The notes beneath the pieces were generated by a model. That model was not told the origin of the DNA, did not search any database, and saw only the letters and a list, made by a program, of their open reading frames with translations. Of a DNA stretch of 39,008 nucleotides, positions 1,699 to 8,611 are shown piece by piece. A program made the translations under genes and the position numbers. The DNA lies in the IMG/VR virus record IMGVR_UViG_2737471857_000016, positions 1 to 39,008 of that record; one strand, given 5' to 3'. Source of the stretch: a virus. Its lineage: Duplodnaviria > Heunggongvirae > Uroviricota > Caudoviricetes. Position 1 is the stretch's first letter; the number at the start of each line of letters is the position of its first letter.

Positions 1699-2262
1699 TC
1701 ACTCTCCTTTGATGCGAATGCCAGCGTCAGACATCATATGCAGATACTCAACTGCATCCTGAACCCATTGACCGCCAATCCCGTAATAGCGATGCGTAAT
1801 GATGTCGATAGTTACTAACGGGTCTTGTTCGATTAACTTCCGCAGAAACTCTTCCAGGTCACCAGTGCAGTGCTTGATGACAGGAGTTTTCCCGGGATGG
1901 CGAACAACAAGAAACTGATTTCCGACTTCACGGACTTCGTTGCTTTCCAGTTCTGCAATGCGCTTCTCTGCGGCTTCCAGCTCAACTCTCAGCTTCCCTA
2001 CCGTTAGCGCAATATCCTCGTTCTCCTGATCACGGCTTTTGATGTATTGCTGGTTTCTTTCCCGTTCATCCAGCAGCGCCAGCACGGTTTCTGGTCCGGT
2101 CAGAAATTTGAAGGCGTTGAGCGCATCAATATCCACACCGTAATCCTTAAGTTCCTGTTCAGTTAACAAATCATCATCAACTGGCAACATTAACAGGCGT
2201 TCCATTGCCGGAATTGCACGTTCTGCCGCCTCACGCAGTACCTGATAGTCAATCTTGCTCAT
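1699..2262 (-). CDS. Ea22-like early protein (187 aa)
   Basis: N-terminus [16 protein letters not shown] resembles Ead/Ea22-like prophage proteins; central coiled-coil-like segment; AAGGAG SD; ATGA overlap with upstream gene. Confidence 0.6.
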   Translation of the reverse strand: MSKIDYQVLREAAERAIPAMERLLMLPVDDDLLTEQELKDYGVDIDALNAFKFLTGPETVLALLDERERNQQYIKSRDQENEDIALTVGKLRVELEAAEKRIAELESNEVREVGNQFLVVRHPGKTPVIKHCTGDLEEFLRKLIEQDPLVTIDIITHRYYGIGGQWVQDAVEYLHMMSDAGIRIKGE

Positions 2263-2973: not shown

Positions 2974-3264
2974 TCATGATTTACTCTCCACGAACTGGTC
3001 AATAGCCATGCTAAGTGACACACCTAAAGTCTCGATATGCTGCTGAACATCCTGTAGCGTCTGCGCCTGAGATAACAGGATTTCACGGTTGCATAACTCT
3101 TTAACCAGATGCTCAAACTTGCTGTAATAACCGATACGGCTTAGTGTTTCTTTCCCTGCATTCTCGCCTTCTTTGATAATTCCTCTTTCGCTAAGAATCA
3201 GGTCGTGTTTGGTTCCGGTAATAACGTATTTTCCGAGGTCGATGTTTAGCTTCATTGTTTTCAT
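2974..3264 (-). CDS. hypothetical protein (96 aa), possibly Abc1-like anti-RecBCD
   Basis: ATG at 3264 with GAGGA SD; size and position next to recombination module fit P22 abc genes; similarity not verified. Confidence 0.45.
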
Positions 3265-3274
3265 TGTTAATTCC

Positions 3275-3571
3275 TCAGTCATTACTGATAGCGCCATAGC
3301 GTGAGCGGTAATTACGCAGGCGCGGGTCGATATATTCAGGGAAGTGGGTATATGTGGCTTTGCGGAATGGTCGGATTGATGTCTGGTAAATTCGCTCGCG
3401 CTCTTCTTTCTCTGCAAGCCATATACAATGGCGAAATTCCTTTTCCTCTTTCGTTTCCTGCGGTAGCGACATTATCCGGTCGTAGTTTTTCCTGAATTTA
3501 TCCAGCACCTCCGATACGGAATTGCCGGAACAGCGGCGCGCGTCATCCGCACCATACAGAGGCGCTGGCAT
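3275..3571 (-). CDS. hypothetical protein (98 aa), possibly Abc2-like anti-RecBCD
   Basis: AGGAG SD upstream of ATG at 3571; N-terminus MPAPLYGADD... recalled as Abc2-like; unverified. Confidence 0.45.
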   Translation of the reverse strand: MPAPLYGADDARRCSGNSVSEVLDKFRKNYDRIMSLPQETKEEKEFRHCIWLAEKEERERIYQTSIRPFRKATYTHFPEYIDPRLRNYRSRYGAISND

Positions 3572-3584
3572 GATTTTCTCCTGA

Positions 3585-4052
3585 TTAAATTGCGTGAATA
3601 GCGTGACGAGGGAAGGGGAGAGTTACTGGTTCCTCGTCTGGATATATTGGCTTGTTGTGCTTGTGCCATTCAACATGACATGCTTTGCATAGCCACATCA
3701 CTTCAAGAGGTTTACTGTAATCGCAGTGGTGAGCGTCTGGGTGGCATTTGCTGTTGCATTTCTGACACGTTGTTGGTCTACATAACTTACCAGATTTAAT
3801 TGCCCGTTTGACTGACCATCTTGCTTGCTGTCTTTGGCGATGAGATTCCAGATAGTTCTCTCTTGCTTTGCTTAATGCAACCTTGCCCTTTTCGCTTTTG
3901 TTATATTTTTTACAAGCATTATTATGTATTAGCTTTCCTATTCCTTTTTGATATTCAGTTACTCGTTTTTTAGTGCATTCCTTGCACACCTTATTTCTAG
4001 GATAAAAACCATTAGGTGGTTTATTCTCTCCACATTTTTTGCAAGTGATCAT
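3585..4052 (-). CDS. HNH-motif / zinc-ribbon nuclease-like protein (155 aa)
   Basis: CxxC...CxxC pairs and HHCDYSKPLEVMWLCKACHVEWH segment fit the HNH pattern; GGGAG SD before ATG at 4052. Confidence 0.55.
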   Translation of the reverse strand: MITCKKCGENKPPNGFYPRNKVCKECTKKRVTEYQKGIGKLIHNNACKKYNKSEKGKVALSKARENYLESHRQRQQARWSVKRAIKSGKLCRPTTCQKCNSKCHPDAHHCDYSKPLEVMWLCKACHVEWHKHNKPIYPDEEPVTLPFPRHAIHAI

Positions 4053-4067
4053 ATTTTCTCCCAATGA

Positions 4068-4529
4068 TTAAAATGGGATCTCATCGTCGAAGTTCATAGG
4101 AGGTTCGCTCTGTTGTGCTAGTGATGATTGCTGCTGTGGCTTCTGTGATTGCCTGCTGGCTGCTTGTTGTTTGCTGTCGCCAATGCCGCCAAGCATTTGC
4201 ATCACGCCATTAATTCCGACATGAACCTCGGTTGTGTAACGGTTTTGTCCTGACTGGTCTTTCCACTTTCTGGTTCTCAGCATTCCCTCGAAATAAATCT
4301 GATCACCTTTTTTCACATACTGCCCCACGACCTCAGCCAGTTTCCCGGATACAGCAACACGATGCCATTCAGTCAATTCCTTTTGCTCGCCAGTATTTTT
4401 ATCTCGCCATTGTTCTGACGTGGCTATTGTCAGGTTAGCGAACGCTGTACCTGATGGTGAGTATCGAACTTCCGGGTCTTGTCCTACCCGACCAAGGATA
4501 ATCACCTTATTTACGCCTCTGCTTGCCAT
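4068..4529 (-). CDS. ssb: single-stranded DNA-binding protein
   Basis: OB-fold SSB sequence ([23 protein letters not shown]...) with acidic C-terminal tail ending DDEIPF. Confidence 0.9.
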
Positions 4530-5336: not shown

Positions 5337-5495
5337 TTATGGCGATACCAGAGAGCTTTCTGCGTGTACATGCGTCTCTGTAACTTGCTCTCCTTCACTG
5401 TGGTTGCAAGTGACATGAATATCTCCTTCGTTGCCGATTAATTCTTTTATCTGACGAATGAATTCTTCGTCTGACCAGTTATCCGTAAAACTCAT
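5337..5495 (-). CDS. small hypothetical protein (52 aa; kil-position gene)
   Basis: ATG overlaps the stop of the upstream cIII-like gene (ATGA), suggesting translational coupling. Confidence 0.4.
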   Translation of the reverse strand: MSFTDNWSDEEFIRQIKELIGNEGDIHVTCNHSEGEQVTETHVHAESSLVSP

Positions 5496-5662
5496 GGACG
5501 GCCTTGTTGTTTCAAAATATCCCAAAGCTTTTCGAGCAAACTTTTCATTCTTGGTTGTTTAAAGTCTGCTCCGGTTAAAATATTTTTTCGTGAATGCTGT
5601 ACCGATAAAATCGGGTTGAAAGGGCGAACCGATGCCGCCCCTGCAATAGCGAACTGTTGCAT
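5492..5662 (-). CDS. cIII: cIII-like protein (FtsH inhibitor), 56 aa
   Basis: N-terminus MQQFAIAG and C-terminal LLEKLWDILKQQG resemble lambda CIII; AAGGAG SD 6 nt upstream. Confidence 0.5.
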   Translation of the reverse strand: MQQFAIAGAASVRPFNPILSVQHSRKNILTGADFKQPRMKSLLEKLWDILKQQGRP

Positions 5663-5845
5663 AGGATGCTCCTTCTGTTTGATTGCATAACGAAAACGCC
5701 TCGAGTGAAGCGTTATTGGTATGCATATAAAAAGGCCCCCACATCGGAGGGCAAAGAAGATTTCCAATAATCAGAACAAGTCGGCTCCTGTTTAGTTACG
5801 AGCGACATTGCTCACATAGCAGACTCGTAAATCTGCTATAGGCGC

Positions 5846-6004
5846 TTATTCGCATCGCATGACAACATCAAATTTTTCGAGATTACTTTGTCGCAACAAT
5901 CCTTCTTCTACTCGGTCAGCTTTTCTATAATTATCAAATTCGAAATGTTTAATTACTTCTTTTGTTTCTCGCTCTATAACTTCAACGATGTATCTCTTAT
6001 TCAT
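5846..6004 (-). CDS. small hypothetical protein (52 aa), AT-rich
   Basis: ORF MNKRYIVEVIERE... with ATG overlapping stop of upstream gene (TAATG); markedly AT-rich compared with neighbours. Confidence 0.3.
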   Translation of the reverse strand: MNKRYIVEVIERETKEVIKHFEFDNYRKADRVEEGLLRQSNLEKFDVVMRCE

Positions 6005-6273
6005 TACTCATCACCTAGGGCTTTTTTGATAGCTTCGCGAGCCTTATTAACAGCTCCATACCATTCTGGATATGTTGTCGTTGTTCTATTTTCGGCTTGC
6101 TTAAGTAATAACTGAAGTGCTTCAAGTAAATCCGGTGCAGCCATAGCCAACCTTCCATTTGCTACGGCCTCTTCTGTTTCTTTACCGGATAGGGCCATTC
6201 CCGGGTGTGAAAATAAAATTAAGCCTGCAAAATTGGCTTCTCGCCAATTTTTCCTAGTACCTTTAAATTCCAT
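6004..6273 (-). CDS. hypothetical protein (89 aa)
   Basis: ATG at 6273 with GAGG SD; lies between the Ral-like and cIII-like genes in the pL operon. Confidence 0.5.
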   Translation of the reverse strand: MEFKGTRKNWREANFAGLILFSHPGMALSGKETEEAVANGRLAMAAPDLLEALQLLLKQAENRTTTTYPEWYGAVNKAREAIKKALGDE

Positions 6274-6311
6274 GTTAGCCTCTGTTGTTATGCCAAAAAT
6301 AAAGGCCACCG

Positions 6312-6512
6312 TCAGGCAGCCTTGTTATTCTGTTTACCAAGTTCTCTGGCAATCATTGCCGTAGTTCGTATTGCCCATTTATCGACATACTTCCCATCCT
6401 CCATTACAGGAAGCATTTCTTCAGGCTTAACCATGCATTCCGATTGCAGTTTGCATCCATTGCATCGCTTGAATTGTCCACACCATTGATTTTTATCAAT
6501 AGTCGTAGTCAT
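6312..6512 (-). CDS. ral: Ral-like restriction-alleviation protein (66 aa)
   Basis: 66 aa, begins MTTTIDKNQW, immediately downstream of N in pL operon, as lambda ral; identity recalled not verified. Confidence 0.55.
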   Translation of the reverse strand: MTTTIDKNQWCGQFKRCNGCKLQSECMVKPEEMLPVMEDGKYVDKWAIRTTAMIARELGKQNNKAA

Positions 6513-6590
6513 AAGGATAGTCCTGGTATTGCTCCATCACATCCTGCGGATGCTCTTCGAACTCTTCAAATTCTTCTTCCATATCTCACC

Positions 6591-6890
6591 TCAAATAAGT
6601 GGTTTGCTGCCTAATTTCATTTTCTGGCGACCAACACAAGTCACCCCCATTTCACTGCGTGGCTTGCGGTAGTAAATACGGTTCTGTTTACGCTCGACTT
6701 CTTCTGCCTTCTTGCAGCGAAGGCTTCCGAGTGATGCTGCTTTATCTGCTCTGACGCAACCAGAGAGCTTTAGCGCAATTTTTCGTGCCAGTCGCTGCTC
6801 TTGCATTGCCTGTTCACGTTGAGCCTGTCTGCGTGCTCTGCGGCGATTTCTGGCGTTATCGTCAGCCAGATATGTAATGACTACTGTCAT
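6591..6890 (-). CDS. N: N-type transcription antitermination protein
   Basis: N-terminus MTVVITY... followed by arginine-rich motif NARNRRRARRQAQ, like P22 gp24/lambda N; GGAGG SD; nutL and OL upstream. Confidence 0.7.
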   Translation of the reverse strand: MTVVITYLADDNARNRRRARRQAQREQAMQEQRLARKIALKLSGCVRADKAASLGSLRCKKAEEVERKQNRIYYRKPRSEMGVTCVGRQKMKLGSKPLI

Positions 6891-7508: not shown

Positions 7509-7877
7509 TTAGTCAGCGAAGGTTAAGACGAGAATTACCTTAATGATGTCTGCTACAACAGACACGGCCATAGATAAACCAAAGACGATCCAAGCCACAG
7601 TGATGTCTTCACTACCATCGTATAGAGTTCCGTAATCACTGGTGTAAGGCGTAAATGTCGCGCCTTGATACAATAGGTATAAGCTTGATCCATAGAGGAT
7701 AAATGCAGATATCCCTTGTATTGCTATGATCACCAGAATCATGAAACGAGCTGATCTATGCGCCCAAGCCTGGCTTATTTTTTCTGATAGAGATTTCGCA
7801 ATAAAAGCATGCGCTAAGCCGTAAATTGTCGAGATTGCCAACATCCCAAAAAAGCTTGCTATAGCGGTTCCAACCAT
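7509..7877 (-). CDS. small polytopic membrane protein in rex position (122 aa; alt TTG start at 7898)
   Basis: Three to four hydrophobic helices; starts 17 nt after cI stop on same strand (alt TTG start overlaps cI stop), so co-transcribed with repressor. Confidence 0.6.
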   Translation of the reverse strand: MVGTAIASFFGMLAISTIYGLAHAFIAKSLSEKISQAWAHRSARFMILVIIAIQGISAFILYGSSLYLLYQGATFTPYTSDYGTLYDGSEDITVAWIVFGLSMAVSVVADIIKVILVLTFAD

Positions 7878-7894
7878 AATCGCCCCTTGCGTGA

Positions 7895-8611
7895 TCAAAC
7901 CAGCCTTAGTTTTGTCTCAATTGCAACGCCTATAATCTTGCAGTTTCCATTGATTGGCACGAGAGGCCATGCAGGATTAAGTCCCTTGAGGTATTTATTT
8001 CCGCCGTCGATTATCAGCTTCTTGAATGTTGCTTCGTTAGAGTCAGAAAGTTTTGCTATGACCAAGCTGCCGTTGATCGCCTCCCTTCCGGTATCGAAAA
8101 GAACGAATGTTCCCTCTGGAATGCTTAACCCAACCGGTGCCGTCATTGAATCACCTTCCACTTTAAGCCAGAACGCATTACCTTGAATATGCGCGTCAGA
8201 CTCAAGCCAAACATCTATGTCTTTAATGGTGTATGGTTCGCATGCTTCACACCACGAGCCAGCCTGGATACTGCTTAACACCGGATACCTCTTTCCTGCT
8301 CTGTATTCCCCTGCATACCTTACGTTGGCATCGCTCTTAAGGCTTTCTGCCTGTTCTGCAACCTTGGCAGCAATTGACTGGCTAAAATCAGCAATTGAGA
8401 CTTGCAACAAACGTGCAAAACCAGATGCGACCTCAACGTTTAGCGCGTTTCTGCCATTAAGATAATGCCCTACCGCTCCTTGGGTGATACCCAGTTCATC
8501 AGCGATTGAGTATTGGGTTATTCCCAATTCTTTCTTTTTTGACTCATACAAAGCCTTAAGCCGCTTAGCGTCTTCGAGCTGTTCTGTCGTCAGTGATTTT
8601 TTATTTTCCAT
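7895..8611 (-). CDS. cI: CI-type prophage repressor (HTH + S24 LexA-like peptidase domain)
   Basis: Strong resemblance to lambda CI throughout (LTQEQLEDARRLKA..., FWLEVEGNSMTAP... equivalents); divergent from cro across an operator region. Confidence 0.9.
   Translation of the reverse strand: MENKKSLTTEQLEDAKRLKALYESKKKELGITQYSIADELGITQGAVGHYLNGRNALNVEVASGFARLLQVSIADFSQSIAAKVAEQAESLKSDANVRYAGEYRAGKRYPVLSSIQAGSWCEACEPYTIKDIDVWLESDAHIQGNAFWLKVEGDSMTAPVGLSIPEGTFVLFDTGREAINGSLVIAKLSDSNEATFKKLIIDGGNKYLKGLNPAWPLVPINGNCKIIGVAIETKLRLV

Follow-up and report, generated by a model that had tools for sequence, protein, structure and literature searches.

The closest described counterparts of the locus analysed here come from lambda and P22. 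Lambda Ral, as a later paper cites Loenen and Murray (1986), alleviates type I restriction by way of enhanced modification. In P22, ral is directly followed by orf78, which matches the profile of the Pfam family PF27050 at 3.9e-13, and then by orf87, a small gene that overlaps the orf78 stop (the three genes are P22gp43, gp42 and gp41). A further comparison is offered by the DNA mimics Ocr and ArdA and by the Lar/Ral-type modulators, with which the small genes described below share their small size, early expression and accessory-gene setting. At the level of whole regions, Silas et al. (bioRxiv 10.1101/2023.04.06.535777; Nat Commun 2025, PMC12373910) place 'Ral' regions 2nd, 11th and 14th in a diversity ranking of enterobacterial phage accessory regions, with orf149, orf123, orf57, orf184 and orf87 among their genes. 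In that work, 200 accessory genes (listed in Supplementary File 3) were synthesised and expressed one by one in about 20 E. coli hosts, which were challenged with T2-T7, P1 or lambda. Within the 'Ral' regions, phenotypes are reported for Ral (orf87 in the numbering of that study) and orf184 only: orf184, which comes from mEp213, triggers gop-beta-cII, and the Ral control also scored as a hit.

The window, that is, the whole stretch of DNA analysed (39,008 nucleotides), has its closest relatives over the first 25 kb in HK620 and Sf6 and, judged by its sequence, belongs to a P22-like temperate phage of the HK620/Sf6 type. Its left early operon lies on the minus strand in the order repressor, N, orf28, ral, 89-aa gene, 52-aa gene, cIII, two small genes, erf and ssb; the two small genes between cIII and erf carry the PHROGs label 'recombinase'. 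An earlier note on this DNA had described ORFs of 66, 89 and 52 aa downstream of N, and all three are confirmed on the minus strand (Table 1). Their accessory setting in the left operon, also proposed there, is borne out as well, the genes occupying the N-to-cIII stretch of the pL operon, a documented hypervariable region (PMC12373910). A fourth gene, orf28, lies between N and ral and was omitted from that note. The layout corresponds to that of P22 in having ral, a PF27050 gene and a small gene overlapping its stop, together with the same hairpin sequence. In contrast to P22, where the downstream gene orf87 encodes an unrelated 67-aa protein, the window has a 52-aa phrog_6949 protein in this position; the N-terminal sheet also differs between P22 orf78 and the 89-aa protein, and sieB and gene 17 of P22 are absent. 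The 'recent acquisition' suggested earlier is not supported; ral, a PF27050 gene and a coupled small ORF constitute the P22 archetype.

Table 1. Features of the left early operon and of the accessory block (coordinates of the window).
Feature	Coordinates	Strand	Basis
Repressor gene	7895..8611	-	Heads the left early operon order
N, antiterminator of phage-21 type, 99 aa, first gene of the pL operon	6591..6890	-	phrog_271, 4.8e-37
orf28, 28 aa, very acidic	6496..6582	-	phrog_16060, 7e-19
ral, restriction-alleviation gene, 66 aa	6312..6512	-	Pfam PF11058 Ral
Terminator-like hairpin (9 pairs) with T-run, spanning the ral stop	6292..6323	-	Consensus scan
Accessory block, 467 bp, two genes	5814..6280	-	BLAST junctions against phage 21 and lambda
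89-aa gene, member of PF27050 'Phage_P22_Y8K6', counterpart of P22 orf78	6004..6273 (ATG at 6273)	-	Homologue annotation, profile
52-aa gene, phrog_6949	5846..6004	-	phrog_6949 match
Conserved hairpin, stem of about 9 bp without T-run, just 3' of the 52-aa stop	5815..5840	-	Comparison with relatives
Two terminator-like hairpins with T-runs, between cassette and cIII	5695..5752	-	Consensus scan
cIII, next conserved pL gene	5492..5662	-	phrog_550, 1e-22

The 66-aa protein matches the Pfam Ral model over its full length (residues 1-66 of 66) at 6.3e-48 and is identical to lambda Ral at 65 of 66 positions, and it is a genuine Ral, so that the earlier label 'Ral-like' is an understatement. The correspondence with lambda extends to an orf28 overlapping the ral start and to the same 3' hairpin, and it is limited to the 66-aa gene, as the two small genes downstream share nothing with Ral. 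The stop of orf28 overlaps the start of ral by 17 nt, and the gene is conserved with lambda orf28 at the same position. Its product (MEEEFEEFEEHPQDVMEQYQDYPYDYDY) has a net charge of about -12 over 28 residues, which makes orf28 the most nucleic-acid-mimic-like gene in the region. Upstream, N aligns with the N of phage 21, including the nutL region. A stretch of about 60 nt (window 6565..6626), which takes in the stop of N and the beginning of the gene that follows, recurs in several other phages before unrelated first-after-N genes and looks like a conserved boundary sequence. A 129-aa ORF (window 7509..7898, minus strand) with about four hydrophobic segments begins at the end of the repressor gene; it has no match in Pfam or PADLOC, and to judge from where it lies it may be an exclusion or defence gene expressed in the lysogen.

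BLAST comparison with phage 21 and lambda places the junctions of the accessory block at 5813/5814 and 6280/6281, the alignment resuming at 5813 on the cIII side and stopping at 6281 on the ral side. Both of these phages carry 43 nt in place of the 467 bp, and the 89-aa and 52-aa genes form a discrete mosaic block that is absent from lambda and phage 21. No paralogue of either gene was found elsewhere in the window. Positions 5700..6307 are 100% identical to a prophage of E. coli CH4794, where the genes are annotated as hypothetical, so that the sequence-level novelty of the block is nil. Its GC content is 39.2% (0.7th percentile). The compositional shift invoked in the earlier note is evident for the 52-aa gene, with 32.1% GC (0.35th percentile of same-size windows) and a GC3 of 24.5% against 47.3% GC for the window, but not for the 89-aa gene, whose 41.9% (9th percentile) is not unusual.

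Both edges of the variable slot are marked by hairpins. On the upstream side, the ral-end hairpin (hairpin and T-run proper at 6323..6302) has a sequence that also follows ral in lambda and phage 21. On the downstream side, the hairpin behind the 52-aa stop occurs in the corresponding position in lambda (after ral), in phage 21, in P22 (where it follows orf87 with an identical stem) and in Atlantibacter and Cronobacter prophages, and it forms the downstream edge of the slot in lambda, phage 21 and P22. Its stem sequences vary while the pairing is kept, with compensatory changes in 8 of 12 pairs and none broken. No Rfam family matched this hairpin, which may be an element for processing or stabilising the pL transcript; a second small stem lies beside it at about 5800..5813. 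The first of the two terminator-like hairpins located further towards cIII is common to lambda and phage 21. The bet-ral region of lambda reportedly holds the tL2 terminator cluster (Luk and Szybalski, 1983).

A consensus scan of the coding strand over 5814..6323 revealed no promoter-like site. Taking into account also the terminator-like hairpin upstream, expression of the block would depend on N. The block does not have the composition of a moron, with its own promoter and its own terminator, since no promoter-like site is found and the downstream hairpin has no T-run. The claim that each gene is translationally coupled through TAATG is valid for the junction between the 89-aa and 52-aa genes, where stop and start overlap in this manner. 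It does not apply to the junction between ral and the 89-aa gene, where the 38 nt from the ral stop (6312) to the next start (6273) accommodate the hairpin, the T-run and a GAGG ribosome-binding site.

The first gene of the block is a member of a very large, uncharacterised phage family. The 89-aa protein has no match in Pfam or NCBIfam, the PF27050 model being absent from the versions searched; precomputed PF27050 assignments are carried by 81 of 81 homologues, and a 98%-identical protein bears the RefSeq name 'XkdD/Y8K6 family phage-associated protein'. A search with the PF27050 profile yields 61,998 cluster representatives at E<=1e-3, nearly all of them stand-alone proteins of 85-125 aa, with some tandem duplicates, and nothing relevant was found in the literature on XkdD and PF27050. 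The family signature, set in a protein of about 90-100 aa, begins with an N-terminal ..GTxGxW strand and a variable sheet; the invariant AAPDLLEAL, a helix start, comes next, then a variable helix, and AIxKALGxE stands at the C-terminal end. The 89-aa protein conforms to this signature; the invariant residues are L42, A45, A46, P47, L49, L50 and A52. The AlphaFold2 model (pLDDT 88.7) consists of three strands followed by a long helical hairpin, and the calculated net charge is -0.4 with a pI of 6.6. The genes of the family are internally mosaic, with N-terminal sheet and C-terminal helix modules recombining around the AAPDLLEAL core, as seen for the window gene and loci L024-L102. The differences between the 89-aa gene and the mEp043 copy are confined to codons ~7-44.

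The 52-aa protein matches phrog_6949, annotated as 'unknown function', over its full length (1-52 of 52) at 1.5e-39. This family is small, with 16 clusters even by profile search, all from Enterobacteriaceae; the gene occurs in 7 of about 50,700 phage records (mEp043, mEp213 and APC_JM3.2) and in 90 of 5426 complete E. coli genomes. Comparison with Atlantibacter, Cronobacter and metagenome copies gives saturated pS values of 0.71-0.92 at a pN of 0.06-0.15, with dN/dS of about 0.06 where computable. The gene is under strong purifying selection and, as membership of PF27050 does for the 89-aa gene, this establishes conservation as a coding sequence in relatives. The protein is modelled with high confidence (AlphaFold2, pLDDT 93.5) as strand-strand-helix-strand and has a net charge of -1.4 and a pI of 5.8. 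Fold searches return generic small alpha/beta matches and uncharacterised phage miniproteins; against viral models, Foldseek finds many uncharacterised phage proteins of 50-60 aa with the same fold, none of them with an assigned function. A search of the PDB with sequence profiles of both small proteins gave no match. A plus-strand ORF at 5888..6115 (75 aa) was also considered as a gene; it has no family or annotation support, the open stretches antisense to the gene range from 51 to 90 codons among homologues in which synonymous sites of the sense frame are saturated, and it was treated as incidental.

The linkage between the two genes was surveyed in 78 further IMG/VR and genome loci with a copy of the 52-aa gene. 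At 69 of these loci, the start of the 52-aa gene is overlapped by 0-4 nt by the end of a PF27050 gene. N- and C-terminal modules are combined in at least nine ways in these preceding genes, and the 52-aa protein remains nearly invariant while its PF27050 partners vary widely at both ends. The pair is not tied to ral, which lies upstream of it in about 17 of the 78 loci, and the other neighbours vary widely. Phage mEp213 (L006) has two annotated N genes (1759..2031 and 3184..3516) that flank the pair, which suggests that its N-proximal segment is duplicated or stacked. After other PF27050 genes, the coupled small gene encodes a protein of 67 aa in P22, 67-70 aa in Sf101 and E. coli prophages, 41 aa in Salmonella and 50 aa in Enterobacter; at least five unrelated small genes fill this position in different phages. 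The end of the PF27050 gene, ...AIxKALG(E/D)E (also given as ...KALG(G/E)E), encodes the ribosome-binding site of the next gene together with the overlapping or abutting stop and start. This site reads GGAGG in most copies and is a weaker AGGTGA in the window. In Cronobacter, the 52-aa copy is preceded by a zinc-ribbon-like 53-aa protein that keeps only a ...KAIGEEE end. The simplest reading of these observations is that the conserved 3' end of PF27050 genes serves as a recombination joint for swapping small genes, although the linkage could instead reflect functional dependence of the two proteins.

Taken as a whole, the block is most probably a two-gene accessory cassette occupying the orf78/orf87 slot of P22 in the N-dependent leftward early operon and encoding narrow-spectrum, protein-binding modulators; this account is favoured, with some reserve. 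The 89-aa gene is its orf78-type PF27050 member, and the 52-aa gene behind it is a rare partner of an exchangeable kind. With lambda and P22 as a guide, transcription would proceed only from pL, after N-modified polymerase has passed the ral-end hairpin, and synthesis of the products would fall in the early lytic phase or follow induction, with none in the lysogen; translation of the 52-aa gene would likewise take place by coupling to the 89-aa gene. Both products are predicted to be small, soluble, near-neutral and cytoplasmic, with neither enzymatic nor nucleic-acid-mimic features; most likely they would bind another protein and serve as non-essential modulators, narrow in spectrum, of functions in the host or in competitors. 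Several points speak against this account. The function is one that we infer, and the published screen, which included relatives of both proteins, likewise shows no host-interaction role. The spread of PF27050 from Proteobacteria to the XkdD of Bacillus PBSX (by RefSeq name) might mean a general phage function, and the almost constant association of the 52-aa gene with PF27050 could mean functional dependence instead of a shared recombination joint.

It is unlikely that either small protein acts in counter-defence, that is, as an anti-restriction factor or other immune inhibitor alongside Ral, as the proposal of an anti-restriction or anti-defence cluster in the earlier note would have it. The setting is favourable to this idea, because Ral belongs to this accessory region, as do, in relatives, a Gad1-family gene and orf184, the trigger of gop-beta-cII. 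The N-terminal sheet of PF27050 is hypervariable around an invariant core, a pattern frequent in arms-race proteins, and the 52-aa gene is AT-rich and patchily distributed. However, the pair mostly occurs away from ral, and neither protein resembles known inhibitors. Pfam, NCBIfam and PADLOC yield no match for either of them (for the PADLOC defence-system models, none at E<=0.1), PHROGs returns unknown-function families only, and no likeness to known inhibitors was found in sequence or fold. Near-neutral charge and the lack of a fold match set both proteins apart from DNA mimics of the Ocr/ArdA type, which are strongly acidic; nor is there any sequence or fold similarity to the Lar/Ral-type modulators. 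The two are not classical anti-restriction proteins, and of the proposed cluster the anti-restriction reading holds for Ral only.

The published screen bears directly on this question. The orf149 of Silas et al. (ATN92755.1, from APC_JM3.2) is identical to the 52-aa protein of the window at 51 of 52 positions, and their orf123 (AII27858.1, from Sf101) is a PF27050 member with a profile E value of 6.7e-18, a homologue and not the 89-aa variant of the window itself. Neither appears in their list of all phenotype-producing genes from the 200-gene screen (PMC12373910), so the anti-defence effect expected in the earlier note is not seen in this screen-scale form of the kind of assay proposed there. 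This constitutes limited negative evidence, as it concerns single genes in a restricted host and phage panel and rests on absence from the phenotype list. The position behind PF27050 is nevertheless one where known counter-defence genes occur: in the E. coli CP146665.1 prophage (L014), a 324-aa gene at 3133..4107 with a precomputed assignment to the Gad1 family (PF25705) directly follows a PF27050 gene with the small gene coupled to it. A 322-aa 'TolA' gene beside the mEp043 cassette was considered as a further Gad1 and rejected, BLASTP showing no similarity to the Gad1-family protein of L014.

Alternatively, the proteins might tune phage development, acting on the lysis-lysogeny decision or on the timing of recombination or replication, like other small early-left genes of lambdoid phages. 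Their presence in the same operon as cIII, kil, erf and ssb is compatible with such a role, and PF27050 is far more widely spread than would be expected of host-specific counter-defence. Nevertheless, the searches revealed no DNA-binding or known regulatory fold, and the genes are too patchy among close relatives to be core regulators, which renders a developmental role quite improbable.

Functional dependence in its strict form, with PF27050 as a scaffold or adaptor and an exchangeable small partner that works only with it, would explain why a PF27050 gene, overlapping by 0-4 nt, nearly always precedes the 52-aa gene and why many phages have a coupled small gene behind a PF27050 gene, and it would also account for silent single-gene expression. 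The invariance of the 52-aa protein opposite divergent PF27050 partners argues against co-evolved contacts, and the ...KAIGEEE end retained on the zinc-ribbon-like protein of Cronobacter fits a recombination joint better, so that a two-protein module of this kind appears decidedly doubtful. An extended version is a widespread modular two-component accessory system with a conserved helical core, a hypervariable sheet and a swappable small partner, in which the 52-aa protein acts only with its PF27050 neighbour and against a defence or rival phage missing from the tested hosts. The silent single-gene screen would then follow from the need for the neighbour and from the absent target; the idea is speculative and has little probability. 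Finally, although the ORFs are short and carry no functional annotation, the notion that they are chance frames in AT-rich spacer DNA can practically be dismissed, as it is refuted by strong purifying selection and contradicted by full-length family matches and confident folds; selection on the 52-aa gene, the match of the 89-aa gene to a huge family and the AlphaFold2 models together identify both as real genes.

The two small genes are an accessory pair that is already catalogued but uncharacterised, laid out as in P22 apart from a rarer downstream partner. They lie in an accessory hotspot known from the literature, and synthesis and screening of the 52-aa protein have been published. Joint testing of PF27050 proteins with their coupled small genes would be cheap and would go beyond the earlier one-gene screens. 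The block also points beyond this phage: PF27050 is among the larger phage protein families of uncharacterised function and regularly carries a swappable, coupled small gene.
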